A stretch of DNA of 64,000 bases, taken from NCBI GenBank assembly GCA_023667265.1, contig JAMPAJ010000002.1, positions 101,334-165,333 of the forward strand, written 5' to 3'. Shown piece by piece: positions 8,947 to 57,377 of the stretch (positions are counted from its first letter, which is position 1; the number at the start of each line of letters is the position of its first letter). The DNA is from Alistipes sp. (GTDB lineage Bacteria > Bacillota > Clostridia > Oscillospirales > Ruminococcaceae). A model generated the notes under the pieces. The model did no database searches, was not told the origin of the DNA, and was given only the letters and a program-made list of their open reading frames with translations. The translations under genes and the position numbers were made by a program.

Positions 8947-9435
8947 ATGTCAGACCGCGAAATCCGGAAAACTCTCGGAGTAATGGTTGAATGCGCAAAG
9001 CTGACACCCGAAATCTTCGCAAAAGCGATTGAAGATATGCTGAAAAACATCTCCGACAAAAATCCGCAAGGGAAAACAAGCCTTAACAAACTGATGAAAA
9101 CAGGCAAGGTTGACAGCATAGAGGTCAGCGACAGCAATATCGGCAGTTTTACACAGACTGCCAAAAAGTACGACCTTACATATGCCTTGAAGCGCGTTCA
9201 GGACGAGAACGGCAAAAAACAGTATCTTGTCTGTTTCCACGGCAAAGACTTAGAAACTATGCAGAAAGCGTTTAAGGAATATTCCTACAAGCAGACCCAT
9301 AAGAAAGAAACGCTTTTCAGCAGAAAGAAAATTGCTGAAATTCAGGTATCCGCTCCCGAACACGATAACGACCGCAGCAGAAGCAAGCAAAAGGAACACA
9401 AAAAAGAACGTTCCGACAAAAATATCAGTCTGTGA
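8947..9435 (+). CDS. PcfB/DUF3801 family conjugation accessory protein
   Basis: GKTSLNKLMK, SIEVSDSNIGSFTQTAKKYDLTYALK, YLVCFHGKDLETMQKAFKEY; immediately upstream of virD4. Confidence 0.8.
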   Translation: MSDREIRKTLGVMVECAKLTPEIFAKAIEDMLKNISDKNPQGKTSLNKLMKTGKVDSIEVSDSNIGSFTQTAKKYDLTYALKRVQDENGKKQYLVCFHGKDLETMQKAFKEYSYKQTHKKETLFSRKKIAEIQVSAPEHDNDRSRSKQKEHKKERSDKNISL

Positions 9436-9651
9436 GGTGAGCTGCAATGACTGATAAGAAAAAATTGGGAAAGTTCAGCTCCGCACACAAGAGAACAGAA
9501 AAAGATATTAAGTGGTATATTCGTTATCTTTATGTTGGCAAAGAGCCGAATTTAAAGCGTGTGGGCGGTTCAGGCAGCGGAAAAACAAGATTTTTTATAA
9601 AGCCAAATCTTATGCCGAAGAAGTGAGGTGAGCTGCAATGACTGATAAGAA
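9432..9651 (+). repeat. 29-bp direct repeat (9432-9460 and 9623-9651) duplicating the virD4 translation start
   Basis: GTGAGGTGAGCTGCAATGACTGATAAGAA present twice, exact. Confidence 0.9.
9447..9626 (+). CDS. 59-aa mini-ORF with the VirD4 start and Walker A segment
   Basis: MTDKKKLGKFSSAHKRTEKDIKWYIRYLYVGKEPNLKRVGGSGSGKTRFFIKPNLMPKK*; same RBS as virD4. Confidence 0.55.
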   Translation: MTDKKKLGKFSSAHKRTEKDIKWYIRYLYVGKEPNLKRVGGSGSGKTRFFIKPNLMPKK

Positions 9652-11476
9652 GAAAAAACCTCTTATTTCTCCCGACAGTATTCTCGGAAAAATGCTTGCG
9701 GACTTGAAAAAAGTTTTTAAGAGGAAAGCAAAGTTTGATAAAAAGACGGTTATCGGACTTTTGCCGCTGATTATTATCGCTTGGTTGGGAAATAAAATTT
9801 ACTGCGCTTACAGACTTAACGGTCTGACAATGGAAATGTTCACAGCGGTGAACGATATGTTTTCAAATCCCGTGCCGAGTTTCAATAAATCTGATTTACT
9901 GGCAGGACTTGTAGCGGCGGCAGCTTTCAAGCTGTTTCTGTATATCAAGAAGAAAAACAAGAAAAACTACCGAGATAAGGAAGAATACGGCTCTGCACGT
10001 TGGGGAACGGCAAAGGATATTGAACCGTATGTTGATACGGAAAATCCCCAAAACAATATAATCCTCACTCAGACCGAGAGCCTGACTATGAACGGCAGAG
10101 TGCCAAATCCGAAATATGCCCGAAATAAAAACATACTTATTGTGGGCGGTTCGGGCAGCGGCAAAACAAGATTTTTCGTAAAGCCTAACATTATGCAAAT
10201 GCACAGCAGCTATGTTGTTACCGACCCGAAAGGCACGATAGTTTTGGAGTGCGGAAAAATGCTCCAAAAAGCAGGATACCGCATAAAAGTCATAAATACG
10301 ATAAATATGGACAAGTCAATGCACTACAATCCTTTTGCCTATCTGCACGGTGAGGAAGATATTCTGAACCTTGCAAACACCATTATCACCAACACCAAAG
10401 GCGAGGGAGACAAAAGCGGCGAGGACTTTTGGGTAAAGGCTGAAAGACTGCTGTATGTTGCATTTATCGCCCTTATATATTACGAATTTCCCGAAGAAGA
10501 AAAGAATTTCGGTACGCTGTTATGGCTTATAAACCAGTGTGAAACACGGGAGGACGACGAAACGTTCAAGAACCGTGTTGACCTTACTTTTGAGCTGCTT
10601 GAAAAGAAAAAGGGCGAAGACCATTTCGCGGTAAGGCAGTACAAAAAATACAAACTTGCGGCAGGAAAGACCGCAAAATCTATCCTTATTTCGTGCGGCG
10701 CGAGACTTGCGCCGTTTGACATAGAAAAAGTCAGAAAAATGATGACTTACGACGAAATGGAACTTGATACGCTCGGAGACCCCGACCAAAAGACGGCTCT
10801 GTTCGTGATAGTTTCGGACACGTCGGCAACATTTAACTTTATTATTGCGATGTTGTACACACAGCTTTTCAATCTGCTCTGTACCGTCGCTGATGATAAA
10901 TACGGCGGCAGACTGCCTACGCACGTTCGCTGTCTGCTTGATGAGTTTGCGAACATCGGGCAAATCCCGAATTTTGACAAGCTCATAGCCACTATCAGAA
11001 GCCGTGAAATATCGGCAAGTATCATTTTGCAGTCCAAATCGCAGCTTAAAGCGATTTATAAAGATAACGCCGACACCATAATCGGCAACTGCGACACAGA
11101 ACTGTTTCTCGGCGGAAAGGAAAAGTCAACGCTCAAGGAGTTATCCGAAATTTTAGGTAAACAGACTATTGACCTTTTCACCACATCGGAAACAAGAGGA
11201 CAGTCGCAGTCATCGGGGACTAACTACAACAGAACAGGGAGGGAGCTGATGTCACAGGACGAAATCGCGGTAATGGACGGCGGCAAGTGCATTATGCAAA
11301 TCAGAGGAACGAGAGCTTTTTTCTCCGATAAATTTGACATTACAAAGCACGAACGCTACAAGGAATTATCGGATTTCGACCCTAAAAACACATTTGACAT
11401 AACGGGATATGTCAAAGCAAACGCTAAAATCAAGAAAAACGACGAAATAGAAATCATGTCCCGAATGGTTTTCTGA
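9638..11476 (+). CDS. virD4: Type IV coupling protein VirD4/TraG
   Basis: N-terminal TMs, YGSARWG, Walker A GGSGSGKT, LLDEFANIG, RSREIS..LQSKSQL. Confidence 0.95.
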   Translation: MTDKKKKPLISPDSILGKMLADLKKVFKRKAKFDKKTVIGLLPLIIIAWLGNKIYCAYRLNGLTMEMFTAVNDMFSNPVPSFNKSDLLAGLVAAAAFKLFLYIKKKNKKNYRDKEEYGSARWGTAKDIEPYVDTENPQNNIILTQTESLTMNGRVPNPKYARNKNILIVGGSGSGKTRFFVKPNIMQMHSSYVVTDPKGTIVLECGKMLQKAGYRIKVINTINMDKSMHYNPFAYLHGEEDILNLANTIITNTKGEGDKSGEDFWVKAERLLYVAFIALIYYEFPEEEKNFGTLLWLINQCETREDDETFKNRVDLTFELLEKKKGEDHFAVRQYKKYKLAAGKTAKSILISCGARLAPFDIEKVRKMMTYDEMELDTLGDPDQKTALFVIVSDTSATFNFIIAMLYTQLFNLLCTVADDKYGGRLPTHVRCLLDEFANIGQIPNFDKLIATIRSREISASIILQSKSQLKAIYKDNADTIIGNCDTELFLGGKEKSTLKELSEILGKQTIDLFTTSETRGQSQSSGTNYNRTGRELMSQDEIAVMDGGKCIMQIRGTRAFFSDKFDITKHERYKELSDFDPKNTFDITGYVKANAKIKKNDEIEIMSRMVF

Positions 11477-11507
11477 ACGTCAAAAAAATTTATGGAGGTA
11501 ATTTAAA

Positions 11508-11729
11508 ATGTCATTTTTTACAGACGCAGTAGGAGTATTACAAACGGTACTTACACTTATAGGCGCAGGCTTAGGCGGTTGGGGAATTGTTAATCTTCTC
11601 GAAGCCTACGGTTCTGACAATGCCGGAGGAAAATCTCAGGGTATGAAGCAGCTTATGGGCGGTGGCGGAATTATTCTTCTCGCTCAGATACTCATTCCTA
11701 AGCTGAACGGTCTTATGTCAACGTCCTGA
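11508..11729 (+). CDS. Maff2 family protein (VirB2-like pilin)
   Basis: AGLGGWGIVNLLEAYGSDNAGGKSQGMKQLMGGGGI; position directly after virD4. Confidence 0.85.
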   Translation: MSFFTDAVGVLQTVLTLIGAGLGGWGIVNLLEAYGSDNAGGKSQGMKQLMGGGGIILLAQILIPKLNGLMSTS

Positions 11730-11747
11730 TGTGTCACCGTGACACAC
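11729..11747. repeat. ICE palindrome copy 1
   Basis: ATGTGTCAC-C-GTGACACAC, directly at the Maff2 stop codon. Confidence 0.9.
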
Positions 11748-11757
11748 TTTAATTAAG

Positions 11758-11787
11758 ATGTCGTCACGAATAAAATCGTGACGACAT
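11758..11787. other. Perfect 12-bp hairpin between the pilin and virB6 genes
   Basis: ATGTCGTCACGA-ATAAAA-TCGTGACGACAT. Confidence 0.7.
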
Positions 11788-11800
11788 AAAACTTTGGGAG

Positions 11801-12748
11801 GTGATTTATTTGGGCGTAGTAAGCGACGCAATTGACGGTATAAAGGACGGAATTGTAGACGCAATAGAAGAATTTATGCAAAAAACATTGGGCGGTATGA
11901 TTGAAACGGTTACCACCAATGCCGCCGGCTGCATGGAGGACGCAATTCTTGACGCAGGCAGCAAAGTTTCTGAAACTCCGAGCGGTTGGCTTAGCGGGGC
12001 AGTATCCGGACGTTCTCCGTATGAAATTCTTCAAAATGTTTCAAATACTGCAATTATGCCTGTTGCAATAGGCATAATGTCAATTATAATCTGCTATGAC
12101 CTGATTACAGCCTGTACCGACAAAAACAGTTTCAAAGATTTTGATACATCAATATTTTTCCGATTTATTGTTAAAGCGTGGGTAGCGATTTACTTTATGA
12201 ATAACTGCTTCACGATTTTTTCAGGAATATTTGACATTGGAGCGGCAATAGTTGGAAAAACAACAGCGATAATTACTTCAACGGACGTTTCAATAACAGA
12301 ACAATTAGCGACAGCTTTTTCGGGAAGTTGGTACAAAGATTTCTCTGTTGGAGACCTTGCCGGTTCGCTTTTGCTGTCACTGTTTACTTATGTGGCTTCG
12401 TTAGCCATATTTGTCATTATAACGGTCGTCACGGCGGGACGAATGATAGAAATAATGATTTACTTTTGTTCTGCCCCTATTCCGTTTGCAACAATGACCA
12501 ACAAGGAGTGGAGTCACGTCGGTTTTTCATTCTTGAAAACCCTGCTTGCCTTTGCGCTCCAATCATTTATCATAATTGTTATACTTGTTCTGTTTGAAGT
12601 CATTTTCAACGCAGAGGTTGTGTCCTCACTTGCAGGTTTGGAGACCCTTTCGGGAGCATTGTTGAAATGGTTAGGCTATGCTGTAGTATGCTGCTTTATG
12701 CTGTTAAAATCGGGAAGTATAGCAAAATCAATCTGCGGAACGCATTAA
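11801..12748 (+). CDS. VirB6-like conjugation membrane protein
   Basis: Multi-TM; GRMIEIMIYFCSAPIPFAT, LLKSGSIAKSI. Confidence 0.85.
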   Translation: MIYLGVVSDAIDGIKDGIVDAIEEFMQKTLGGMIETVTTNAAGCMEDAILDAGSKVSETPSGWLSGAVSGRSPYEILQNVSNTAIMPVAIGIMSIIICYDLITACTDKNSFKDFDTSIFFRFIVKAWVAIYFMNNCFTIFSGIFDIGAAIVGKTTAIITSTDVSITEQLATAFSGSWYKDFSVGDLAGSLLLSLFTYVASLAIFVIITVVTAGRMIEIMIYFCSAPIPFATMTNKEWSHVGFSFLKTLLAFALQSFIIIVILVLFEVIFNAEVVSSLAGLETLSGALLKWLGYAVVCCFMLLKSGSIAKSICGTH

Positions 12749-23467: not shown

Positions 23468-24736
23468 ATGAATTTTATGCGTAAAACAAATAATCTTGCT
23501 GACAAAGATATTCACAATAACATCATACTGACAGACGATGTTCAGTTATCGCTCAATCCTGTGAAAACTGGAAAAAATCTGAATGTATGTGTTTTCGGCG
23601 GTGGAGGAACGGGCAAAACACAGAATTACGTTCTGCCGAATATTTTACAGGCAAACACCTCATACGTCATAACAGACCACGGCGGATATTTGTTGAACAA
23701 AACAAGAAAATTCCTTGAAGAACAAGGTTATGTTATCAAAGTTCTGAACCTGAATGATACCGAAAATTCAAACCACTACAATCCGTTTGACTATGTATAT
23801 GACAAGGACGGCGTTTGTAATGAAGCTGACGTTACAAAAATGGTTGAAATGATTTTAGCAACGCCAAAAACAGCAGCGAAAAAGACTTCTCTTGCAGGTC
23901 AAATTACAGACGATATGATGTGTATCCTTGTTTCCGCAATCTGTTTTTATCTATTTGAAATGGGAAGCAAAGAAAATCGTAATTTTCAAAATGTAATCAG
24001 ACTATTAAGTATGCCTGTTTCGGAACTTGACGAAATTTTTCTTATGCCCGATGAAAAAGTAAAGTTCTTATCTCTGAAACGTTATATGCTGTTCAGAAAA
24101 GCGGCAAAAGTGGAAGAAATTGCAGAAACCATACGCATTAAAGCACTTAACAGACTGGGTGCGTTTACTCAGACAGATATAACTAATCTAACACAATTTG
24201 ACGATATGGAACTTGACCTCATAGGAGACAGAAAAACAGCGGTTTTTATTCCGCTCCCGACTTTCAACCACAGTCTTAATTTTCTTACAAGCGTTCTGAT
24301 TACACAAATATTCAATGTATTATGCGGCAGGACTAAAGCACTGCCAAATAGCAAATTGCCTGTTCACGTTCGCTTTATGCTTGATGAATTTGCCAACTGC
24401 GGCTATATTCCCGATTTTGAAAAGTATGTTGCAGTATGCGGTTCTCACAATATAAGTTTTAATATTATCTTACAGTGCGTTGAGCAACTGCAAACGCTTT
24501 ATAAACATTGGGATATTATACTGAATTGTTGCGACAGCAGATTATATCTCGGCGGTTTAAATATTGGAACATTGCACAACATTTCTGAAACTGTCGGCAG
24601 CCAAATGAGTGTTGATGAATTTCTTGCAATAAATAATCACAACAAATGCGTTTTAAACGTTCGCGGTCTGCCGACGTTTTGCGGTAATAAGTTTGACGTT
24701 GAAAAACATTTTAACTATGACAAGATTGAAGAATAG
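23468..24736 (+). CDS. Second, soluble VirD4/TraG-like ATPase lacking the N-terminal TMs
   Basis: NLNVCVFGGGGTGKTQNYVLPNILQ, SNHYNPFDY, HVRFMLDEFANCG, ILQCVEQLQTLY. Confidence 0.8.
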   Translation: MNFMRKTNNLADKDIHNNIILTDDVQLSLNPVKTGKNLNVCVFGGGGTGKTQNYVLPNILQANTSYVITDHGGYLLNKTRKFLEEQGYVIKVLNLNDTENSNHYNPFDYVYDKDGVCNEADVTKMVEMILATPKTAAKKTSLAGQITDDMMCILVSAICFYLFEMGSKENRNFQNVIRLLSMPVSELDEIFLMPDEKVKFLSLKRYMLFRKAAKVEEIAETIRIKALNRLGAFTQTDITNLTQFDDMELDLIGDRKTAVFIPLPTFNHSLNFLTSVLITQIFNVLCGRTKALPNSKLPVHVRFMLDEFANCGYIPDFEKYVAVCGSHNISFNIILQCVEQLQTLYKHWDIILNCCDSRLYLGGLNIGTLHNISETVGSQMSVDEFLAINNHNKCVLNVRGLPTFCGNKFDVEKHFNYDKIEE

Positions 24737-27489: not shown

Positions 27490-30363
27490 ATGCCAAAATA
27501 TACTGATGAACAGGTGGAACGCGCAAAAAATACCGACGTCCGCACGTTTCTTGAACAGACAGAGGGGTACACATTTCAGAGAAGCGGAAAATATCTGAAA
27601 TGCCAAAATCCCGAAAGAACCGGACAGCCGTCATCGCTTACGGTGGATACTAATATGAACCGCATATTTTACAATTCCGAAACAGGCAACCGTCCGCTTT
27701 CCGCTCTTGACTGGTGCAAGGAAATAAAAAAACTTGATTTTCAATCCTCAATGCAGCTTATTCTCGGCGAAAGTCCGCAAGGTGAAAGAACCGAAAAGCC
27801 AAAGTACCAACAGCACAGGTCAGAGCCTGTAAACTATGAACCCAAAAACCTTGAAATGTCCGAAAAAGCGGATACGTCAAAAAACGTATATGCCTATCTC
27901 ACCAAAACGCGAGGTATTCCCGAAAACATTGTCAAGGACTGCCTTAACAAAAATCTCATATATCAGGACGTAAGAAAAAACGCCGTATTTGTTGGGTATG
28001 ACGATGATAACAATGCCAAATATGCCGCAAGGCGAGGTACGTTCACGCCCGACGGAAAAGAGCCTTTCAAGCGCGACTGCACAGGCAGCGACAAAAATTT
28101 TGCTTTCAGGTTAGAGGGCAAAAATGCCGACACGATTTATGTTGCGGAAGCGGCTATCGACGCGCTTAGCCTTGCCGCTTTGGAGGATAAATTTCACGGC
28201 AGCGGAGCGTATAAGGAAAAGACCTACATATCAACAGGCGGCGCAGGAATTGACAGCGCAATCGAACAATTCTGCAAGACCCACGACGTTAAAACAATCA
28301 ACATCTGCTTTGACAATGACGAAGCCGGAAAGAACGGAATGGAAAAAATAATGCAGAAATTCCGTGAAAAAGGCTATGAAGTAAATGATATGAGGGCAAG
28401 TTTGGCGCATGACTATAACGATGAGCTGCTTGCTTTCAATCAAAATCCGCAGTTTTATCCCGAACCGCCTTTGACGGTAGCAAAAAATATCGGCGCGGAG
28501 AAAACGGAGAATATTCAGCTGCCCGAAATGCCAGAAAACTATCCCGAACCGCCGATAAACGAGAATAATATTCCTCCCGAAGATTATTATGCGGATTATG
28601 ACGAAGCGGATATACCTCCGGAGGATTATTACAGCGGATATGAGCAGTTTGAAGAAATACCGCCCATGCCCGAACCTAAAAAAGAAGAAAGGATTGATAC
28701 TATGCCCGAAATTACCATAACGGAGAATGTACAGCAGGAAGAAAAAGAACCTAAAGAGGTTGAACAGCCTGTTATGGAAGAAATACAGCCTGTTCCCGAA
28801 CAGCCGCAGACAAGGATTTTTGAAATGGCTGAAAACGCTGACAGTCAGAAAAAAGACAATATTATTCTTCCGAAAAAAGAAGCAGAACCTCCGCAGACAG
28901 AAAATGTTTCCGTTCCCTCACCGCAGGAGCATAAAGAAGAATTCACCGAAAAACAGCTTGAAAACCTTGATACAGAGGGCAAAATGAATTTTCTGCTTGC
29001 TTCAATGAAAGAACGTCAGGAGAATAAACGCGCGGAGCTGCTTGACAAAATTGACAGGATAGACGGCAAAATTGCCGACCGACAGAAGCAGATAGACAAG
29101 CTGAACAGCAAAATTGCGGATATTGAAACTTCCTTGAAAACCTCGGCTGCCTTTAAACGCGCTTTTGGCAATACTCTTGTCGGCAAACTTATTGACAGCA
29201 GTATCGAAAGAAAGCAAGCCAAAATTCAGAAAATCCGTGAAGTAAAAATCCCGAAGCAGAAAGAAAAACTTGACAGGCAGACCAACAAAAAGGCTAAGTC
29301 CGTTAAACGGCTCGGCAAAGTAAACAGGAAAATTGACAAAATCGACAAAGTACAGCAGTTTTTATCAGCTATCGGCAGCGATGACAAAGAGGAGCGGCAC
29401 AAAGGCTTTGTGACAGGTCTTGAAAATCTTTCAGATATTCGCCGTGAAAGTCTTGAAAACAAGCTGCATAAGACTGAAACAAAGATTGATATGCTTTCGG
29501 CTAAATACAGTTCTCCCGATATTTCTCATACGGAACGTTATGAAATCGGTAAAAATATACGCTCCCTCAGAGCTAAGTCGGACGTTCTTGCTGTCAAAAT
29601 CGAAAGTATAAACAAGCTGCACAGCGATTTGGACGATATAAAGAACGGAAAACTTACCGAAGCTGAAATTGAAACGGTTGTCAATAAAACAGCCGATAAA
29701 ATTTCCGAACGTCTTGAAAATTCCGAAAATCAGGGGGAAAAGGGAGTTGTAAATGCCGTTATTGCTAACTCCGTTGAAGCGGGCAGTGAAGCTATAAACG
29801 AGGTTACGGCAGAAAAGGCAATCGAACAAGCTGAAAAATCCAAACCGTCTATCGAACGTGAGCGCACTCCCGAAGAAAGAGAGCCTGACGTGAACAAGAC
29901 AAAGGAGCTTGATATTCTGACAATGGCAGCGGTCATAACAGGAGTTAATATTTCTGAACTTAACAGACTTCCTGCCGAGATAAAGGCGGATATTATTGCT
30001 GAATTTCAGGAGAATAACGGCAATATTTCATCGGAACAGCTTGCGGAGAGAATATGCGAAATTGCCGATATTGAGCCGCGCGAAACGGTAAAGCCGTCAG
30101 AACCCGAAATAAAGCCGCAGGAAAACAAGGAAAAGGAAAATCATTTGCGTGAACTGGAGGAAATGACAGAATTGAATTATAACCACATTGACGGAATAAT
30201 CAATAATCTGCCGCCGGAAAAACCAAAGGAAATTGAGACGGAAAAAGACGAACCGCTTTTCTCGCGTTCAAAAATTATGGGCGATGATTTTAAGCCGACT
30301 TCCGAAAAATCGCAGGAAGATAAGGAAAAGAGCAAAAACAAAAATAACCACATAGGACTGTAA
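27490..30363 (+). CDS. Primase-like protein: DUF3991 plus toprim domain, coiled coil and DUF4316-like tail
   Basis: YAYLTKTRGI, NAVFVGYD, YVAEAAIDALS, ICFDNDEAG, DYND; C-terminal ELNYNHIDGIINN. Confidence 0.8.
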   Translation: MPKYTDEQVERAKNTDVRTFLEQTEGYTFQRSGKYLKCQNPERTGQPSSLTVDTNMNRIFYNSETGNRPLSALDWCKEIKKLDFQSSMQLILGESPQGERTEKPKYQQHRSEPVNYEPKNLEMSEKADTSKNVYAYLTKTRGIPENIVKDCLNKNLIYQDVRKNAVFVGYDDDNNAKYAARRGTFTPDGKEPFKRDCTGSDKNFAFRLEGKNADTIYVAEAAIDALSLAALEDKFHGSGAYKEKTYISTGGAGIDSAIEQFCKTHDVKTINICFDNDEAGKNGMEKIMQKFREKGYEVNDMRASLAHDYNDELLAFNQNPQFYPEPPLTVAKNIGAEKTENIQLPEMPENYPEPPINENNIPPEDYYADYDEADIPPEDYYSGYEQFEEIPPMPEPKKEERIDTMPEITITENVQQEEKEPKEVEQPVMEEIQPVPEQPQTRIFEMAENADSQKKDNIILPKKEAEPPQTENVSVPSPQEHKEEFTEKQLENLDTEGKMNFLLASMKERQENKRAELLDKIDRIDGKIADRQKQIDKLNSKIADIETSLKTSAAFKRAFGNTLVGKLIDSSIERKQAKIQKIREVKIPKQKEKLDRQTNKKAKSVKRLGKVNRKIDKIDKVQQFLSAIGSDDKEERHKGFVTGLENLSDIRRESLENKLHKTETKIDMLSAKYSSPDISHTERYEIGKNIRSLRAKSDVLAVKIESINKLHSDLDDIKNGKLTEAEIETVVNKTADKISERLENSENQGEKGVVNAVIANSVEAGSEAINEVTAEKAIEQAEKSKPSIERERTPEEREPDVNKTKELDILTMAAVITGVNISELNRLPAEIKADIIAEFQENNGNISSEQLAERICEIADIEPRETVKPSEPEIKPQENKEKENHLRELEEMTELNYNHIDGIINNLPPEKPKEIETEKDEPLFSRSKIMGDDFKPTSEKSQEDKEKSKNKNNHIGL

Positions 30364-30410
30364 CAAAACTTGTGCAAAGTGCCGAAATATAAAGTCAAGG
30401 TAAAAAAACC

Positions 30411-30439
30411 TTGACTTTAGCACTTTAATGTGGTACAAT
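30411..30439 (+). promoter_or_regulatory. sigma-A-type promoter of the giant helicase gene, with the -35 inside a hairpin
   Basis: TTGACT-17 bp-TACAAT with TG; inverted repeat TAAAGTCAAGG/CCTTGACTTTA at 30390-30419. Confidence 0.65.
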
Positions 30440-30450
30440 GAAATGGAGGA

Positions 30451-33400
30451 ATGGAAATGCCAAACAACAAGGTCAGTGAAGCACAGGCAATTTATATCGG
30501 TGAAATACGGCGAGTTCAGGAGACTGCCGAAAAGTGGAGAGATTTTCTTGATTTTGCGGCACAGGCGCAGATAAGTGAAAATCAGAGTGAATTTGAATTT
30601 TCCTCAAAGCTGATTATTCACGCGCGTAATCCAAATGCCAAAGACTGCCGCCCGTTCGGTGAATGGAAAACAGAGGACGGAAATCACGTCAGCCGGCTTG
30701 AAAGGGGAATACCCGTATTATCCCGTGACAGCAGAGGAAATCAGTCTGTAACGTATCTTTTCGATACAAGTCAGACAGCGTTAAAAAAAGAGCCTGAACG
30801 TATTGAAATCCCCGAAGAAATGAGGGAAAATCTTAAATCTGCTCTAAGCGGAATAATTAAAGATTTTTCGGACAATACTTCACTTTCCGACGTACAGAAG
30901 CGCATTTTTGCTGAAACTGCCGAATACAAGCTGTGCAAACAGTACGGACTTGAAACGGCAGAAAATCCCGAAAGATTTTCAGGTATTGAAAAGCTGTCAG
31001 TAAAAGAAATTGCAAACATCGGTGTAGCTCTTAACAGGTGCAGTAATTCTTTTGCTGAAACGGTAAAAAACGAAAGGAGTAATTTCAATGAGCGAGGTAA
31101 CAACAGTCAATCAAGAGATGATAGGACAGAATTATACGGACAGGAACGGCGTGGAGTGGATTTGGGACAAGGAGTATCGGGAACACGTGATGAAGTACGT
31201 TTACGACGAGAACATGAACGAATGGAGCAAACTCAACGAGGAGAACATGACATACGAACCGCTGATAGAAATTCCGCAGCCGAAGCCGACAGCGGCAATG
31301 GGCAAGTACGGCAGTATGAGACTGAAATTCATATGGCAGACCCCGTGCCTGTTGGAGATACTTCTCACGGACAATCAGGTGAAGCACTGCGAGGAAATGA
31401 ACGAGAAAGTTCTGAACCTGATAGAGAACATAGTGGAGAAGAAAAAGCAGTCGGAGGAATACAAGGCGATAGAGGAAACGGGGAAATTCCTGCCGAAAGT
31501 GCAGATACTGGAGAGGTACAGAGCAGAAGCGGAGGAGGAAATACTTCCCGTGACGGTTTACGCGATATAACGGAGGAAACGGCAGAGCCTGAAAAGGTTT
31601 CTGCCGTTTCTGTTTCCGAAAATGAACAGTCAGACCCTTTTGAAAACTTCAAACGTTCCAAAGACGGAGATATTATCTTAGGCAACACTACTTTCAGATA
31701 TATTCCCGAAAAGACCTATACCCAAATTGACAAGGATATAGCTGTCGAGGTTTCGGAACAGCTTGAGAAGCAAGGCATAAAATTTTCGGGAGTTATAAAG
31801 GGAGACACGGCAACAATTACCGTGAGCAAGCCGCAGAAAGAAACGCTTGACAGGATTATTGCGGATATTTCTTCTCCCAACAAAGATATTGCTGCCGAAG
31901 AAAGCATTGACACTCCCGAATTGACAGATAAGGAAAAGGCTTTTTTGGACGGAGAAACAGCTCCGCTTATGGCTAAAGATGTGCTTGCTTGGGACGAAAT
32001 AGAAGATATTGGCTACCGTTTGTACGAAAAAGGATATATCGACCGTCACGCTCCGAGCGAAAAGGCAATATACGGAAACGGTCTGAATGAACCCGTGCTT
32101 TACGATATGGCTAAGCGTATGCAAAACGGCGAGGATATTGGCAAAGAACTGTCTTTAGCTCTGCTCGGAAATCAGCGCACGTTTGACATAAACATTTTTG
32201 ACGAATTTAATGTTGAATACGGCAGTGACTTTATTACAGCCAAATTCGGCAATGCTGAAAAACAGGTAAGCTATGAGGAACTGGAAAATGCTTTTTTCAA
32301 ATTGTTCAAAGATGAGTATGATGATATTGTTCACGGCAGAACGGTTGAGGATTTGAGAGATATTTTTCCCGATATTACGGGCGAAACCGCCGATAACCTT
32401 ATCAATGCCTTTGACGGTGCAATTATGCACGGCTGGCAGGATAACGAGGTTGTTCAGCGTAAAATCAAAAAGGCTTTGTATAATATTCTCGGTGATAAGG
32501 AAAATACCGAAAAGGCTTTTTCTTCTATTGCAGATATGAAATATAACGTAAAAATAAGCAATATCGGCTTTTTCTCTCTCGGCAACGGTGTGACTGTCTG
32601 CGATACTTCCCGTATGGATAAGGAAACAAACGATTATGTTAAGGTGGCTCACATTTCGCCGGAGGGCGTACTTACTATGTACGATAATTCCGTCTCCCAA
32701 CAGGATATGGCAAGTATCAGGCAGCAAGTCAATACTGTGCGTGATGAATTTGTGCGGAACTGGAACTCAATGTCGAGGACGCAGCAGTTTGAAATGCTTC
32801 TTGACAGAGCCGATATTACCACACAGGTCAATATTTCCAAAGACAGTATCTCTATGGAAGAAAAAATTGAAAAATATATGCCCTATGTATTTTTCAAAAA
32901 AGGCGAAAGACCCGAACCGCAGACGGCAGAGCAGAATAATATCAAAAATATTGAATTTATTGGTGAAAGAGATAGCTTTGAAGCCGTAAAAGCAGCGGCT
33001 CGAACTCAATCCTTTGGTACTACCGTGACTGACGGCAACAGGCTTTCTATCGTTATGTATGATAATGCCGATGTTGACGAGGTAAGAAAACTCTTAGAAA
33101 CTGCACAAGAAAACAATGTTTTTGAAACTGTTGAAACCGCTAAAATGCTTGAAGATAAATTCGGAGCAGTTTTTTCATATAATTCTCAAAACAATCCCAC
33201 TGTTGCCGATTTATCGGCAGGAGATGTAATTCTCTATGAGGGCAAGCGAAGAGAAGTTGAAAAAATAAGCGAAAACAGCATAAGTCTGAAAGATTTGGAC
33301 GCGCCCGATTTCGGAGGTATTTTGCTCGGTACAAGTGACGTACTTGCGTATAAGGGCTGGCAGGAGGATATGAACGAAAAGGGTTTTGAAATTCTTTCCA

Positions 33401-36400
33401 AAGCCAAAACTTACTCCGAAATCACAAGGGATATGTACCAAACAGAAAATCCCGATATATTTACCGTTAAGGGCAAAGGCAGCTTTGCAAAAATTGATAT
33501 TACGGTCAATGCGGAGCTGTGGGAAAGGCTTGCCGAAAAGGGACTTGTACGGAACGAGAACAGTGTTGACAGGGTAATTTTCAATATTGATAACAAGGAA
33601 TGGAACAAACTTGTAATTCCCGATAAATGGGGAAATATGACCAACAATATCAATATCGAGGACGTTTTTACCAGTGAGGAATTGCAGACAGCTAAATCTG
33701 TTGCGGATTTTGTTATCGGAAATGAGGATATTCAGCAAGTGCTTGACAATTTCAATGAGGATATAACTCCTGTTGAAAATAATACGTCATTTTCGGAGGA
33801 AATAAGCGGCAGTAACGGCACTGTCAAATATAAGGTAACGGAAAACGCTGACGAGCAGTACAAATATAATGTGCAGATATTCACTCAGGGGGAGAACGGC
33901 GAATTTTATTACAGCGGCTTAGGTCGCTTCTGCGAAACGCTTGATGAAGCTCACGCTTTTATTGAAAATGATATTGCAGAGCGTACTGCCGCAAAGGATA
34001 GGCAACATTCCGATAAGGACGAAATCACCGGAAACGATGAATATAACATTTCACAGGGACAGATGTCACTGTTTGATGATATTCCGGATATAGAGGAAAT
34101 TCCCAATGAAAGAAACTATCAGGTTGTTACTTATTCTCGTGATTTGGGTGCAGATGACAAAAAGATTTTTTCAACATTGGACGAAGCCGTTGAAAGCGGC
34201 AGAGGATATTTGTATGACAAGGAACACGAGGGTTATTATTCGGGCATTGCCATTCTTAACACAAAAGAACAAAAGGTTGAATATTATGAGGGTGATTTCC
34301 CGTTAGAGGGTATTTTCAGCGAACAGGTATACCAAAACAGCGGTAATTGGCAGAGAGCCGAGCCAATTCCAAACTTACTGTTTGACAAGTTTGATGAGCA
34401 TTACAACGAAATGTATAAAAATCACGATGAAGTCAACGGTTATGACGAAGCGGTCGCTGTCGGTGACAAATTTATTAGGGAAAATCCCGATATTATGGAA
34501 AGAATAGCAAATTCCAGAAATGATGTTATTACCAGTGACCGTGAAGCAGCAGCTCTCGCATTTGCACTTGCCGACGTGGGTATGATTGACAAATTTGTTG
34601 AACCTGAACAGTCTAAACAACAGAAAGTTCAGCAGAATTTAGTTACATCGGTGCATACTGAACAATCGCCGTTAAATCCGGAACGTGTCACGGTGACACA
34701 CTCCGAAGCTGCAAAAGTGCCTGACATTGATGTTGAAAAGCCGGAAGAAAAGAAAACCAATAACCTTTTCCGCATAACAGACGAGCATTTGGGCGAGGGC
34801 GGCAAAAAGGAAAAATTCAGGAATAACATTGAAGCTATAAAAACGCTGCAAATCCTTGAAGCCGAAGAACGCGCCGCAACTCCCGAAGAACAGGAAACAC
34901 TGTCCAAATATATCGGCTGGGGCGGTTTGCAGGAAGCGTTTGACAATTCTCTCTCCGCTTGGGATACGGAATACCGCGAACTTAAAAATCTTCTTTCCGA
35001 GGAAGAATACGAAGCCGCACGGTCTACCGTAAACGACGCGTTTTACACTTCTCCGGTCATAACACAGGCAATTTATGAGGGACTTGCGAACATCGGATTT
35101 AACGGCGGAGAAGTCCTTGAGCCGTCAATGGGTGTGGGAAACTTTTTCGGAACTATGCCCGATAAAATGCGTGAAAACAGCAATCTGTCGGGAATTGAAA
35201 TCGACAGCATTTCGGGACGTATCGCCAAAAAGCTCTATCCCGAAGCGGATATTGCCATAAACGGCTATGAAAATATAAAGCTGACCAAAGGCTCTTTTGA
35301 CTTGGCTGTGGGCAACGTTCCGTTCGGAAATCACGGTGTAAACGACAAAACAAAGGCATACAAAGGACTTCTGATACACGACTACTTCTTTGCCAAATCC
35401 CTTGACAGCGTTCGTTCGGGCGGTATTGTTGCTTTTGTAACGTCAACGGGTACGCTCGATAAAGACGATACGAAAGTCCGTCAAATGCTTGCACAGAAAG
35501 CGGAGCTTTTGGGCGCGGTCAGACTGCCTAACAATGCTTTTCAGAAAAACGCAGGAACACAGACGGCAACCGATATTATCTTTCTGAAAAAGCGTGAAAA
35601 ACCGCTTAATATCAGCGAAATGCCTATGGATAAATCCTGTGAATGGGTGCATACAAAGGAAAACGCCGACGGTCTGAAAATAAACAGCTATTTTGCCGAC
35701 AATCCCGAAATGGTTTTAGGCGAACTTTCCGACAAGGGACGTTTCGGCAGTATAATATGCACTCCCGTTCAGGGCGCAGACCTTAAAGAACAGCTTCACG
35801 AAGCTATGAAAAATATCAAGGGAGAATACGTTCCCCTTGAATTTCAGCAGGAGCTTGACGAACGTGCGGAAAATAACTATCTGACCGCAACTCCCGATAT
35901 TGAAAATCTGACCTATACTGTTGTGGACGATAAGCTGTATTTCCGTGTTGACGATAACCTTATTCCGCTGAAAGAAAGCGAACAGCACGGAGTGACCGCA
36001 GACCGCCGCAAAGGTTTGTGCGATTTGGGTTTAACCGTCAGGGAGCTTTTGAAAGCGCAAGTCGAGGACAGACCCGACAAGGAAATAAAGCTGCTGCAAG
36101 CGGAGCTTAACGTTAAGTATGATAAATTCGTTCAGAAATTCGGACGGATAAATCCCACGGAAACGCCAAACTCAAGAAATGCAAGCGGAGTTACAAGAAA
36201 AGCTCCCAACAGCAACGTTTTCAAAAACGACGTAAGGCTGCCGCTTTTGCAGTCCCTTGAAAAAATGAAAGAGGGGCAGTTTGTAGGCAAAACAGAGATA
36301 TTCACCGAAAGAACCATACGTCCCCGTAAGGTAGCGGAACACGTTGAAACCGCTCACGAAGCATTGATTTTGTCAATATCCGAAAAGGGAAAAATTGACT

Positions 36401-39400
36401 TTGATTATATGCAGGACTTGACAGGCTTTGAGAAAGAAAAAATAGTTTCCGATTTGCACGGTGACATATACCCTGTTCCCGAACTTTCCACGGAAGATAA
36501 TACCGTATATCAGACAAGCGATGAGTATTTATCGGGAAATATCTATAAAAAAATAGCTATGGCGGAAGCAAAAATATCGGAAAATCCTGCCTATGCGGAA
36601 AATGTGGCGGCTCTGACGGAAGTAATACCGAAACCGCTGAAAGCCACGGAAATAGATATGCAGCTCGGTATGACTTGGATTGACACGAAAATCATTCAGC
36701 AGTTTATGTATGAAACTTTTGAAACTCCGCAGCGTTTCAAGGAATATGACGGAGATGTTCCGCAGGAAAATCCCTCCGCTATAACCGTTCACTATTCGGG
36801 CGCAGGAAAAGGCTCTTGGAAAGTTGAAAACGCATGTCTTGACAATTCCGTGAAGTCTACGAAAAATTTCGGTACAAAGGATTTGAACGCTTATGAACTG
36901 CTTGAAAAAATCCTTAACGCTAAATCGGTCGCGGTAACGCAAACCGTAAGAGATGAGGAGGGCAGACAAAAGACCGTAATTCTTGAAAAGCAGACAAAGG
37001 CAGCGGAGGATAAAGTCAAGCAGATAAACGCCGCTTTCAAAAAATGGATTTTTGCAGACCCCGAAAGGCGCAATGAGCTTGTAAAGACGTACAATGAAAA
37101 ATTCAACGGCATACGTCCCCGTGAATACGACGGCAGCAATCTTAATTTCTTCGGTTCAAATCCCGAAATAACGCTGAAACCGCATCAGAAAAATGCTGTG
37201 GCGCACGCGCTTTTCGGCGGCAATACGCTGTTCGCACATCAGGTCGGCGCAGGAAAAACCTTTGAGATGATAGCCACGGCAATGGAGGGAAAACGTCTCG
37301 GACTGCACAATAAGAGTATGTTTGTCGTTCCAAATCATCTGACGGAACAGATAGGCTCTGACTTTATGAAGCTGTACCCTAACGCTAATATTCTTGTGGC
37401 AAAGCCGGACGATTTTTCTCCGCAGAAGCGCAGACAGATGTGCGCAAGAATTGCAACGGGAAATTTCGACGCGGTAATTATAGGACATTCACAGCTTATA
37501 AAAATTCCGCTTTCCGCGAAGCGTGAAGAAGAATTTATACGCAAGCAGATAAACGAGGTTGTATCAGCTCTTGAAGCTGCCGAGGAAACCGACAGCAAAA
37601 GCTACACGGTAAAGCAGCTCGAAGCAACAAGAAAAAATCTCCGTGAACGTCTTGAAAAGCTGACCAACGGCACGGTCAAGGACAATGCGGTCACATTCGA
37701 GGAGCTTGGTGTGGATAAGCTGTTTGTAGACGAGGCTCACGAGTTTAAAAACCTCTATGTTTCCACAAAAATGGAGAACGTTTCGGGACTTTCCACTAAT
37801 GCCGACGTTCAGAAAACGCAGGATTTGTATATGAAATGTCAGTATCTTGACGAAAAAACAGGCAGCAAAGGTATTGTTTTCAGTACGGGAACGCCTGTGA
37901 CCAACGCTCTCTCGGAAATGTACACCACAATGAAATATTTGCAGTCCGATTTGCTGAAAGAAACAGGTCTTGACAGTTTCGATGCGTGGGCAGGAAATTT
38001 TACAAGAAAATCCACCGAAGCGGAAATCTCGCCCAGCGGCAGCGACTGGAGAATGAAAACACGTTTGAAATTCACCAACGTTCCCGAACTTGTCACTATG
38101 TTCAAAGAATGCGCCGATGTGAAAATGGCAGACCAACTCAATCTCGATGTGCCTGAATGCGAAAAGCACATTGTTTCGGTTGAGCCGACAGAAGCGCAAA
38201 AATCAGTTGTACAGTCCCTTGCGGTAAGAGCTGAAGCTATCAGCAAGGGAGAGGTTTCAAGAACAGAGGATAATATGCTTGTTGTAACAGGTGACGGAAG
38301 AAAGCTCGGTCTTGACCAACGGCTTTATGACCTTAATCTGCCCGACGAACCGCAGACAAAGTTAAACGCTTGTATTCAGAACGTTTTTGACATATGGGAA
38401 AATACGTCCGAAAAGAAGTCAACGCAGCTTGTTTTCTGTGATTTGGGTGTGCCGCAGTCCAAAGAAGATTTGAAAAAGAACGGAGAACGGTTTGACGTTT
38501 ATTCCGATATTCGTTCAAAGCTGATAGAAAAAGGCATACCCGAAAAGGAAATAGCCTTTATCCACGAAGCCAACAGCGAAACGGAAAAGGCGAAACTGTT
38601 TGCAAAAGTCCGCAGCGGAGACGTTCGTGTGCTTATCGGTTCAACGCAGAAAATGGGCGCAGGAACTAATGTGCAGGACAAACTTGTCGCACTTCACGAC
38701 CTTGACTGCCCTTGGAGACCCGCCGACCTAACGCAGCGTTTGGGACGTATGGTTAGACAGGGCAACGAAAACAAGAAAGTAGACAATTTCAGATATGTTA
38801 CCAAAGGCACGTTCGACGCATATCTGTACCAAATGGTAGAAAAAAAACAGGAAAGCATTTCGCAGATTTTCACGTCAAAGGCTATTGCGCGAACCTGTGA
38901 CGATATTGACGATATGGCGGTTGACCTTATGCAAGTCAAAATGGCTGCCGTGGGAGACGACCGTATCAGGCGGCAAATGGAGCTTAGAGAGGATATTCGC
39001 AGTCTGAATATGCTGAAAAATACATATCTTGAAAATAAATACGAAATTGAGGACAACATAAAAAGGCTGCCGTCCAAAATTGCCAACACGGAAAAAATAA
39101 TCGAGGGAATTGCCGCCGACACCAAAACGGTAAAAGGATATGTTCCCAAAAAGGATATTGACGGTCAGGAAGTTTTTGAAATGAAAGTCGGAAACACCTT
39201 GTACGTTGATAAAAAAGAAGCGGCGGAAGCTCTCAAAGCTGCTATGACAAGTGCTGTTATGGGAAATCCGAAAGCGCAAACGGATATAGCCGAATACAAA
39301 GGCTTCAAAATAGCCGTTTCCTATGACGGCTTCGCAAAATCTTACAAAGGACATCTTAAAGGCGAAAACATTTATTCCTTTGATTTTGGCAGCAGCGAAA

Positions 39401-40071
39401 GCGGAAATCTCACGAGAATAGATAACGCGATAGCTTCTGTTCCTATGCGTATAGATAAAGTCTGCAACGAGCTTGAACGTATGAAAACTGAGCTTGCCGA
39501 CAGCATAAAGGAAGCCGATATGCCGTTTGAGCATGAAGCGGAGCTTGAGGAAAAGAAACAGGAGCTTGAACGTCTGACTGACGAGATAAACGCCGATAAG
39601 GTAAAAGGTGAGATTGCGCCGGAACAGCCGGAAAGCACGGGAAAATCCTCAGAAAAGCCGGAAAAACAGGTGCAGACCGAAAAAGTTGATAATCTCAACA
39701 TCAAATGGCGGCAGAACGACAAGGAGCTTCGCATAACCTATGACAGAACCGCCGACAGCAAGATTACCGCATATTCGGACGGAAAAGAAATAGGGCATTG
39801 CTCCCCCGACGAGCTGACGGTCACTAAAATCAGCGGGAGCGAACAGAAAAAATATCCCGACGGAATAACAAAGTGCGTCGAACCTTTAAACCTTGCGTTC
39901 AGCAGTAAAATGGCTATGCACATCAATAACTTTGCCGAAAGGGTGAAAGAAGCGGAAAAGTCCGTTTCAAGGGACGATAAGGCACTTTTCTCCCGTGACA
40001 GGATTATGAGCGATGATTTCAAGCCAACCTCGGAAAAGTCAGCCGATACTCCCAAATCTCAGTCGCTTTAA
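30451..40071 (+). CDS. 3206-aa DarB-like protein: ArdC-like N-terminus, N6-adenine MTase and SNF2-type helicase
   Basis: LEPSMGVGNF, GNVPF, HQVGAGKT, FVDEAHEFKN, GTPVTN, MGAGTNVQ, QRLGRMVRQGN. Confidence 0.9.
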   Translation: MEMPNNKVSEAQAIYIGEIRRVQETAEKWRDFLDFAAQAQISENQSEFEFSSKLIIHARNPNAKDCRPFGEWKTEDGNHVSRLERGIPVLSRDSRGNQSVTYLFDTSQTALKKEPERIEIPEEMRENLKSALSGIIKDFSDNTSLSDVQKRIFAETAEYKLCKQYGLETAENPERFSGIEKLSVKEIANIGVALNRCSNSFAETVKNERSNFNERGNNSQSRDDRTELYGQERRGVDLGQGVSGTRDEVRLRREHERMEQTQRGEHDIRTADRNSAAEADSGNGQVRQYETEIHMADPVPVGDTSHGQSGEALRGNERESSEPDREHSGEEKAVGGIQGDRGNGEIPAESADTGEVQSRSGGGNTSRDGLRDITEETAEPEKVSAVSVSENEQSDPFENFKRSKDGDIILGNTTFRYIPEKTYTQIDKDIAVEVSEQLEKQGIKFSGVIKGDTATITVSKPQKETLDRIIADISSPNKDIAAEESIDTPELTDKEKAFLDGETAPLMAKDVLAWDEIEDIGYRLYEKGYIDRHAPSEKAIYGNGLNEPVLYDMAKRMQNGEDIGKELSLALLGNQRTFDINIFDEFNVEYGSDFITAKFGNAEKQVSYEELENAFFKLFKDEYDDIVHGRTVEDLRDIFPDITGETADNLINAFDGAIMHGWQDNEVVQRKIKKALYNILGDKENTEKAFSSIADMKYNVKISNIGFFSLGNGVTVCDTSRMDKETNDYVKVAHISPEGVLTMYDNSVSQQDMASIRQQVNTVRDEFVRNWNSMSRTQQFEMLLDRADITTQVNISKDSISMEEKIEKYMPYVFFKKGERPEPQTAEQNNIKNIEFIGERDSFEAVKAAARTQSFGTTVTDGNRLSIVMYDNADVDEVRKLLETAQENNVFETVETAKMLEDKFGAVFSYNSQNNPTVADLSAGDVILYEGKRREVEKISENSISLKDLDAPDFGGILLGTSDVLAYKGWQEDMNEKGFEILSKAKTYSEITRDMYQTENPDIFTVKGKGSFAKIDITVNAELWERLAEKGLVRNENSVDRVIFNIDNKEWNKLVIPDKWGNMTNNINIEDVFTSEELQTAKSVADFVIGNEDIQQVLDNFNEDITPVENNTSFSEEISGSNGTVKYKVTENADEQYKYNVQIFTQGENGEFYYSGLGRFCETLDEAHAFIENDIAERTAAKDRQHSDKDEITGNDEYNISQGQMSLFDDIPDIEEIPNERNYQVVTYSRDLGADDKKIFSTLDEAVESGRGYLYDKEHEGYYSGIAILNTKEQKVEYYEGDFPLEGIFSEQVYQNSGNWQRAEPIPNLLFDKFDEHYNEMYKNHDEVNGYDEAVAVGDKFIRENPDIMERIANSRNDVITSDREAAALAFALADVGMIDKFVEPEQSKQQKVQQNLVTSVHTEQSPLNPERVTVTHSEAAKVPDIDVEKPEEKKTNNLFRITDEHLGEGGKKEKFRNNIEAIKTLQILEAEERAATPEEQETLSKYIGWGGLQEAFDNSLSAWDTEYRELKNLLSEEEYEAARSTVNDAFYTSPVITQAIYEGLANIGFNGGEVLEPSMGVGNFFGTMPDKMRENSNLSGIEIDSISGRIAKKLYPEADIAINGYENIKLTKGSFDLAVGNVPFGNHGVNDKTKAYKGLLIHDYFFAKSLDSVRSGGIVAFVTSTGTLDKDDTKVRQMLAQKAELLGAVRLPNNAFQKNAGTQTATDIIFLKKREKPLNISEMPMDKSCEWVHTKENADGLKINSYFADNPEMVLGELSDKGRFGSIICTPVQGADLKEQLHEAMKNIKGEYVPLEFQQELDERAENNYLTATPDIENLTYTVVDDKLYFRVDDNLIPLKESEQHGVTADRRKGLCDLGLTVRELLKAQVEDRPDKEIKLLQAELNVKYDKFVQKFGRINPTETPNSRNASGVTRKAPNSNVFKNDVRLPLLQSLEKMKEGQFVGKTEIFTERTIRPRKVAEHVETAHEALILSISEKGKIDFDYMQDLTGFEKEKIVSDLHGDIYPVPELSTEDNTVYQTSDEYLSGNIYKKIAMAEAKISENPAYAENVAALTEVIPKPLKATEIDMQLGMTWIDTKIIQQFMYETFETPQRFKEYDGDVPQENPSAITVHYSGAGKGSWKVENACLDNSVKSTKNFGTKDLNAYELLEKILNAKSVAVTQTVRDEEGRQKTVILEKQTKAAEDKVKQINAAFKKWIFADPERRNELVKTYNEKFNGIRPREYDGSNLNFFGSNPEITLKPHQKNAVAHALFGGNTLFAHQVGAGKTFEMIATAMEGKRLGLHNKSMFVVPNHLTEQIGSDFMKLYPNANILVAKPDDFSPQKRRQMCARIATGNFDAVIIGHSQLIKIPLSAKREEEFIRKQINEVVSALEAAEETDSKSYTVKQLEATRKNLRERLEKLTNGTVKDNAVTFEELGVDKLFVDEAHEFKNLYVSTKMENVSGLSTNADVQKTQDLYMKCQYLDEKTGSKGIVFSTGTPVTNALSEMYTTMKYLQSDLLKETGLDSFDAWAGNFTRKSTEAEISPSGSDWRMKTRLKFTNVPELVTMFKECADVKMADQLNLDVPECEKHIVSVEPTEAQKSVVQSLAVRAEAISKGEVSRTEDNMLVVTGDGRKLGLDQRLYDLNLPDEPQTKLNACIQNVFDIWENTSEKKSTQLVFCDLGVPQSKEDLKKNGERFDVYSDIRSKLIEKGIPEKEIAFIHEANSETEKAKLFAKVRSGDVRVLIGSTQKMGAGTNVQDKLVALHDLDCPWRPADLTQRLGRMVRQGNENKKVDNFRYVTKGTFDAYLYQMVEKKQESISQIFTSKAIARTCDDIDDMAVDLMQVKMAAVGDDRIRRQMELREDIRSLNMLKNTYLENKYEIEDNIKRLPSKIANTEKIIEGIAADTKTVKGYVPKKDIDGQEVFEMKVGNTLYVDKKEAAEALKAAMTSAVMGNPKAQTDIAEYKGFKIAVSYDGFAKSYKGHLKGENIYSFDFGSSESGNLTRIDNAIASVPMRIDKVCNELERMKTELADSIKEADMPFEHEAELEEKKQELERLTDEINADKVKGEIAPEQPESTGKSSEKPEKQVQTEKVDNLNIKWRQNDKELRITYDRTADSKITAYSDGKEIGHCSPDELTVTKISGSEQKKYPDGITKCVEPLNLAFSSKMAMHINNFAERVKEAEKSVSRDDKALFSRDRIMSDDFKPTSEKSADTPKSQSL
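31088..31570 (+). CDS. TnpV-like protein nested in the +1 frame of the giant helicase gene
   Basis: RBS GAAAGGAG before the ATG; MGKYGSMRLKF..LLEILL..HCEEMNE..YRAEAEEEIL..VYAI matches the TnpV pattern. Confidence 0.72.
   Translation: MSEVTTVNQEMIGQNYTDRNGVEWIWDKEYREHVMKYVYDENMNEWSKLNEENMTYEPLIEIPQPKPTAAMGKYGSMRLKFIWQTPCLLEILLTDNQVKHCEEMNEKVLNLIENIVEKKKQSEEYKAIEETGKFLPKVQILERYRAEAEEEILPVTVYAI
34683..34701. repeat. ICE palindrome copy 8 (intragenic)
   Basis: ACGTGTCAC-G-GTGACACAC within the helicase gene (encodes RVTVTH in a linker). Confidence 0.85.

Positions 40072-55673: not shown

Positions 55674-57377
<1,704 letters not shown>

Follow-up and report, generated by a model that had tools for sequence, protein, structure and literature searches.

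Here we report that a tnpV gene of 160 codons lies wholly within a giant open reading frame (ORF) of 3206 codons, on the same strand but in a different frame, in an integrative and conjugative element (ICE). The stretch of DNA analysed, hereafter the window, comprises 64,000 nucleotides from Alistipes sp., placed by GTDB in the Ruminococcaceae of the Clostridia (assembly GCA_023667265.1, contig JAMPAJ010000002.1, positions 101,334 to 165,333 of the forward strand). Judged by comparison of related sequences, the arrangement is very probably genuine dual coding on one strand of a Clostridia-type ICE, maintained by selection, with tnpV apparently the older of the two partners. A first-pass annotation of the window had proposed a fully nested dual-coding region, and that proposal is upheld, since both frames are open and conserved and carry signatures of selection. 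Its heading, in which TnpV was overprinted inside the helicase, stands as far as the nesting is concerned but not as to polarity, as the evidence favours the helicase-frame peptide, here called the tether, as the newcomer. The features on which the argument turns are as follows.

30451..40071, plus strand: giant ORF of 3206 codons, with an N-terminal module (N-module), tether, variable modules, Eco57I-like N6-methyltransferase (MTase) and SNF2/ResIII helicase (ORF list, Pfam, PHROG)
30451..31086, plus strand: N-module of the giant protein, 212 amino acids, without a Pfam family (conservation, coding signature)
31072..31079, plus strand: Shine-Dalgarno (SD) sequence GAAAGGAG of tnpV, 8 nt 5' of the tnpV ATG and within the giant ORF
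31087..31572, plus strand: helicase-frame tether of ~162 codons, rich in G, D, E, R and S (giant-protein residues ~213-374; translation, composition)
31088..31570, plus strand: nested tnpV gene, 160 amino acids, ATG start (ORF list, Pfam TnpV, homologues, substitution phase)

The nested ORF occupies frame +1 relative to the giant ORF ((31088-30451) mod 3 = 1), and its coordinates, ATG and SD GAAAGGAG are exactly those first claimed for a 160-residue same-strand ORF with a ribosome-binding site. The TnpV pattern that had been noted in its C-terminal part was put to a profile search, in which Pfam TnpV (PF14198) scored above its gathering threshold (33.8 bits against 27, E=3.7e-8) and aligned residues 54-153 with profile positions 7-107 of 111; a match to phrog_24764 also backs this identity. 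Fifteen homologues from gut metagenomes are 58-76% identical, PF14198 is present in 14 of them, and the alignment of 16 TnpV sequences contains 37 invariant columns. An AlphaFold2 (AF2) model (pLDDT 80) has beta-hairpins at the N-terminus and a helical bundle at the C-terminus; searched with Foldseek against PDB and BFVD, it gave neither a neighbour at E<0.1 nor a match to a winged helix of the Xis type. Our best guess is that TnpV is a small accessory factor in the processing of element DNA or in establishment. The only pointers to a recombination or regulatory factor, as the first-pass annotation had it, are a postulate in the literature and the TnpX-type recombinase carried by the same element.

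The openness of the helicase frame across tnpV is far from what TnpV coding would leave by chance. When the TnpV protein was held fixed and its codons were resampled from the usage of the element, 14.6 helicase-frame stops were expected and none of 20,000 resamplings was open, and permuting tnpV's own codons gave a probability of 0.00075 for an open helicase frame. Control windows of 160 codons taken from giant genes outside the overlap (n=339) had a mean of 16.4 stops in the shifted frame and a minimum of 7, so that none was open.

The same arrangement was recovered in two scans, one with TnpV as query against GTDB genomes (12 loci, almost all in Ruminococcus, Oscillospiraceae or Clostridia metagenome-assembled genomes, MAGs) and the other with the N-module alone as query against metagenome contigs (26 loci), which makes the second a sample independent of TnpV. 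Both frames are open in 11 of the 12 GTDB loci, the remaining one (L029) being 5'-truncated, and in all 20 metagenome loci that have tnpV and an intact N-module frame. There are about 26 distinct overlap sequences from Ruminococcus/Oscillospiraceae elements (TnpV identity 58-77%), none with a stop in either frame, and per-locus permutation gave probabilities of openness of ~0-0.01 at all loci but one. At every locus with a full N-module and sufficient sequence, tnpV is found at +1 and the N-module and MTase share one frame, which runs to as many as 3,700 codons. The start signals are likewise maintained, with GA(A/G)AGGA(G/A), a spacer of ~8 nt and ATG kept in all nested loci. The first-pass annotation had named conservation of the +1 frame and ribosome-binding site as a check, and the frame, the ATG and the SD are intact in every homologous giant gene examined; of the two outcomes that it would have taken as refutation, lack of a TnpV HMM hit and frequent +1-frame stops in close homologues, neither was found. 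On long relative contigs the gene order is that of the window, namely topoisomerase III, C5-methylase, DUF3991/Toprim_2, TnpV, giant helicase, sigma-70 and DUF4367.

Truncated, rearranged or low-coverage contigs were set aside (L011-L015, L029, L017, L058, L060 and L062). Among these, several independent assemblies (L011-L014, ~11003-11023 in L011, and L015, ~5671-5697) break, or both of their frames end, at one point in the overlap, a common break point that suggests an insertion or repeat boundary in those variants. In L029, from a Huintestinicola MAG, a chromosomal gene runs at 6600-6630 into a 5'-truncated tnpV (144 amino acids; 'TnpV protein' at NCBI), a junction that would be either the edge of the element or a chimera formed within the overlap. 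L027 (contig CAYNYB010000020.1) carries the full nested arrangement and is binned as 'uncultured Alistipes' (Bacteroidota), whereas all other loci are from Clostridia; this reflects either mis-binning or transfer of the ICE between phyla.

The two frames differ in what selection appears to preserve. Pairwise differences in the overlap, counted by TnpV codon position, are.22 at the first,.18 at the second and.35 at the third position, an order that makes the helicase frame's own third position its least variable. Amino-acid divergence in the overlap is.45 for the helicase-frame peptide against.33 for TnpV. Recent substitutions among near-identical copies, a small sample, are TnpV-synonymous in 9 of 22 cases (19% expected, p=.015) and helicase-synonymous in 2 of 22 (23% expected). 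Because of the codon-phase pattern, the divergence and the synonymous excess, we take TnpV to be the frame under purifying selection at the amino-acid level. The charged, low-complexity linker of the main frame had earlier been ascribed to selection on the other frame, and the codon-phase analysis agrees.

The constraint that the helicase frame places on tnpV is visible at synonymous positions. T at the TnpV third position (T3) before AA, AG or GA, which creates TAA, TAG or TGA, was found in 0 of 736 instances in the nested genes, the corresponding figures being 27.9% (3038/10872) for the remainder of these giant genes and 13.8% for free-standing tnpV. In contexts unable to form stops, T3 amounts to 12.6% in nested genes, 34.6% in the background and 25.3% in standalone tnpV; this depletion in safe contexts corresponds to the low hydrophobicity of the tether, F, L, S, Y, C and W being the amino acids specified by codons that begin with T. 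Where Tyr, Asp, Asn, Phe or Cys is conserved, nested copies invariably have C as the last base of the codon, and standalone copies have a mixture of C and T. Divergence at four-fold sites is.34 in TnpV as against.55 in the N-module and.48 in the MTase, the flanking single-coding regions. Taken together, the comparisons indicate that the helicase frame is selected for openness and hydrophilic composition and not for a particular sequence. In the window the tether reads NERGNNSQSRDD...SGGGNTSRDG, includes the stretch GNGQVRQYETEIHMADPVPVGDTSHGQSGEALR and is without F, W or C. Its hydrophobic residues make up 14% (13-17% across 12 loci/lineages) compared with 30% in the remainder of the protein, and it is presumably disordered or flexible.

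A natural control is provided by metagenome contigs on which this TnpV subfamily is free-standing, on small Rep3/Mob plasmids with toxin-antitoxin pairs. In these standalone genes the frame equivalent to that of the helicase contains 4, 5, 6, 11 and 15 stops. In the two plasmid copies that diverge most, the number agrees with the permutation expectation (12.3 and 13.7 stops), and a standalone clade that lies beside nested L025 in a neighbour-joining tree (midpoint-rooted, no outgroup) has 4-6 stops versus 8-10 expected, the intermediate pattern to be expected after recent escape from the overlap. Among PLSDB plasmids, tblastn detected no match to TnpV, and no recombinase was seen in the sequenced stretch of the Rep3 plasmids that bear tnpV. 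On two of them (L006 589-2135, L030 3919-5483) tnpV begins 3 nt past the rep stop codon, a spacing that suggests that its translation is coupled to that of Rep and that its role is not bound to a serine recombinase.

We propose that a single stretch of mRNA, ~480 nt long, is translated in two frames. Ribosomes coming from the start of the giant ORF would read the tnpV DNA in frame 0 and produce a disordered tether, the -1 reading of tnpV, which would connect the N-module with the variable modules, the MTase and the helicase. Free TnpV would come from separate ribosomes that initiate internally at the SD and ATG 31088, in frame +1. That both products are translated we infer from the conserved signals; a screen of RNA-seq runs found none that contains this sequence (share 0.04 at best). 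As to history, the most likely course is that a free-standing tnpV once stood between an N-module gene and a helicase gene, whose ORFs would then have been fused by read-through of tnpV in the other frame; some small Rep3 plasmids would later have regained tnpV as a free gene, in which stop avoidance is now decaying. An older tnpV is favoured because the TnpV family is widespread and free-standing elsewhere, because the composition of the helicase-frame peptide is that of an overprinted frame and because only the TnpV frame shows selection at the amino-acid level. The combination of a tether formed de novo by read-through that fused N-module to helicase, coupling through the mRNA, and escape of tnpV to plasmids is offered tentatively, as an account that may well be correct in full but that we would not yet favour as a whole. 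If it is true, the amount of TnpV made during conjugative establishment would be tied, through the shared mRNA, to how much the giant gene is translated, and the locus would represent a 'gene fusion by overprinting' for which the reverse process, the escape of tnpV with its stop avoidance decaying, would also have been caught in the act.

Some of our own observations weigh against this interpretation. Standalone tnpV is itself G3-rich and somewhat T3-poor, so that part of the composition is intrinsic to tnpV or inherited. One contig (L056, 163-1728, 2.6x coverage) joins N-module residues 1-172 to other modules and the MTase without the tnpV segment, and thus either the tether is not indispensable or the contig is rearranged. 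The polarity of the overprinting, finally, is read from family distribution and composition, and the tree has no outgroup.

The scarcity of T3 in standalone tnpV and the missing tether of L056 also lend something to a very unlikely alternative, in which the N-module, tnpV and a helicase starting after tnpV are three separate genes and the open helicase frame is incidental and untranslated. Public gene calls on relatives seem at first sight to say the same, with a free TnpV, a helicase cut to 2571 or 2747 amino acids that starts after tnpV and an N-module (~210 residues) left uncalled. However, giant ORFs of 3208 and 3142 codons (L001 and L005) start in the uncalled gap, cross tnpV in the other frame and enter the helicase, and the split calls are a gene-caller artefact; the mis-called stretches are 9315-10000 and 10493-11277 in L001 and 9416-10000 in L005. 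A separate N-module gene would moreover need a stop codon, and there is none before residue 3206. Incidental openness would also have to explain the absence of any N-module-frame stop over the 160-codon overlap in the ~26 distinct sequences, where 4-16 would be expected, and the complete avoidance of stop-forming T3 (0/736 against a 27.9% background) that is relaxed in standalone copies.

The converse alternative, that only the helicase frame functions and the TnpV frame is an undecayed, untranslated remnant, is highly improbable. TnpX alone has been reported sufficient for excision of Tn4451. A relic would nevertheless not be expected to gather substitutions in the TnpV codon phase while the third position of the supposedly functional frame remains the least variable, nor to retain an intact ORF, ATG and SD in all lineages at 58-77% identity, with 37 invariant columns in 16 sequences. 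With the helicase-frame peptide held fixed, the probability that the TnpV frame would be open is 0.00085.

We give scarcely any credence to a programmed +1 frameshift near 31067-31088 that would yield an N-module-TnpV fusion instead of, or besides, free TnpV. Both frames do overlap on one mRNA, and in L005, L021, L038 and L055 no stop interrupts the TnpV frame for a good distance 5' of its ATG. In most loci, however, a stop 0-10 codons 5' of the conserved ATG closes the TnpV frame, no conserved slippery motif is visible, and the SD, spacer and ATG are conserved as independent initiation predicts; standalone tnpV, too, starts at the homologous Met. A -1 slippery-looking A_AAA_AAC at ~31063 was considered and rejected, as the shift would be into the wrong frame and the motif lacks conservation. 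A sequencing or assembly artefact, or a chance ORF, can be dismissed for practical purposes, given that two independent sequencing runs produced identical contigs over 30400-32400 without indels and substitutions are the only differences in a mouse-gut metagenome variant of ~97% identity, which excludes frameshift or assembly error, and given a Pfam match over threshold and conservation in dozens of independent assemblies.

The giant protein that surrounds tnpV has the Pfam domains Eco57I, ResIII, SNF2-rel_dom and Helicase_C, and its residues 1427-3108 match phrog_10089 ('DarB-like antirestriction') with 1517 bits. This supports its description as a DarB-like antirestriction methyltransferase/helicase of predicted activity, and the PHROG match agrees with the anti-restriction MTase/helicase label of the first-pass annotation. 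The N-module has the substitution pattern of a coding sequence (.50 at the third,.28 at the first and.20 at the second position) and 55 invariant columns among 10 lineages. It always shares its frame with the MTase, and there is never a stop between N-module and tether. It matched no Pfam family and no PDB sequence, apart from a single weak and implausible match in a profile search against PDB sequences, and its structure model had no PDB neighbour at E<0.1 in Foldseek. An ArdC-N-like domain was suspected in the N-module; no tool result supported it.

With regard to the start of the giant ORF, the listed ATG (30451) abuts GGAGGA with zero spacer, whereas a second ATG at 30457 (MPNNK...) follows GGAGG 30445-30449 with a 7-nt spacer and fits the N-termini of relatives; the true start is probably ATG 30457. 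A promoter/terminator scan returned 4 promoter-like sites where 2.3 were expected, and the best-scoring candidate (30411-30439), being too near the giant-ORF SD to convince, was not used as evidence. In the giant protein of L001 (~10500-12500), ~200-residue modules stand in tandem duplication, each after the motif TAAEPNTVSAVSV, in a part of the contig that has a run of N. The same junction motif recurs after the tnpV overlap in the window as ETAEPEKVSAVSV (~31580-31620), and motifs of the TAAEPNTVSAVSV type may be a recurring inter-module junction.

The surrounding element is an ICE, with VirB4- and VirB6-like genes, topoisomerase III and type IV secretion system (T4SS) genes. Two further genes of the window bear on the context of tnpV.

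27490..30363, plus strand: DUF3991/Toprim_2 primase-like protein, 957 amino acids, upstream neighbour of the giant gene (Pfam; synteny in all related elements, L001, L002 and L005)
55692..57377, plus strand: TnpX-type large serine recombinase (Pfam Resolvase, Recombinase, Zn_ribbon_recom and DUF4368)

The recombinase probably marks one end of the ICE. There are two separate genes for T4SS coupling proteins (T4SS-DNA_transf/TraG-D_C), at 9638-11476 and 23468-24736. The 957-residue protein and the giant protein have a C-terminal tail LFSRxxIMxDDFKPTSEKS in common (30121-30360 and 39829-40068), with 56% identity over 43 amino acids (E=9e-12) and a Pfam DUF4316 match in the 957-residue protein; L001 and L005 show this tail too. 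Such a shared tail could mark proteins for T4SS translocation into the recipient. The host also encodes dockerin proteins, in keeping with Ruminococcus.

On a practical level, users of metagenome catalogues should be aware that gene callers keep tnpV, shorten the giant gene and drop the N-module, with the result that this DarB-like ICE family is systematically mis-annotated. More broadly, long and conserved same-strand dual coding is rare and often contested in bacteria, and the locus offers a good model in which one frame would be constrained for amino-acid sequence and the other for openness and composition only. It also places TnpV in physical connection with genes for establishment and antirestriction on an ICE with a TnpX-type recombinase. 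The case is thus relevant to the biology of both overlapping genes and ICEs, and carries a lesson for annotation.

Nested genes of related design are known from other systems, although a tnpV gene inside a DarB-like one was not described in any paper that our literature search found. In Bacillus subtilis, the small gene comS lies wholly within the giant multi-domain gene srfAB and is co-transcribed with the host operon, and frame-specific genetics has been carried out on it (PMC12915044). The likeness to tnpV in its giant gene extends to strand, difference of frame and full nesting. With 46 codons and a lineage-specific distribution comS is the newcomer of its pair; tnpV, in contrast, is 160 codons long, is a member of a widespread Pfam family and is apparently the older partner, and the host frame over tnpV is a sequence-tolerant tether where that of srfAB is an enzymatic domain. 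On the IncQ plasmid RSF1010, the accessory gene mobB is contained in a different frame within the large DNA-processing gene mobA/repB (PMC2200642), which like the present case nests an accessory gene of a mobile element in a multifunctional one. There, however, the partners are a relaxase/primase and MobB on a Gram-negative plasmid, as opposed to a DarB-like MTase/helicase and TnpV, and at mobA there is no evidence that the overlap fuses two formerly separate modules.

Compared with Tn4451/Tn4453 and the Clostridium difficile elements Tn6104-6106, the ICE described here shares the Pfam family of its TnpV, its nature as a clostridial mobile element and a co-encoded TnpX-type recombinase. A role for TnpV in Tn4451 excision has only been postulated, from similarity to lambda Xis (PMC3158075). 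In those elements tnpV is free-standing and not nested, and the present subfamily differs from Tn4451-type TnpV in an extra N-terminal beta-hairpin region of ~50 residues, outside the Pfam model, and in its occurrence on Rep3 plasmids as well. The giant protein resembles DarB of phage P1 in that residues 1427-3108 match the DarB-like family, with N6-MTase and helicase domains, and differs from it in being ICE-encoded and in having ~1400 extra N-terminal residues with variable modules that include the N-module and tether. From the sequence comparisons, tnpV and its giant gene form a new and well-supported member of the class of nested, out-of-frame, same-strand genes, distinguished by a nested gene that is apparently the older partner and by unusually clean comparative evidence with built-in standalone controls.

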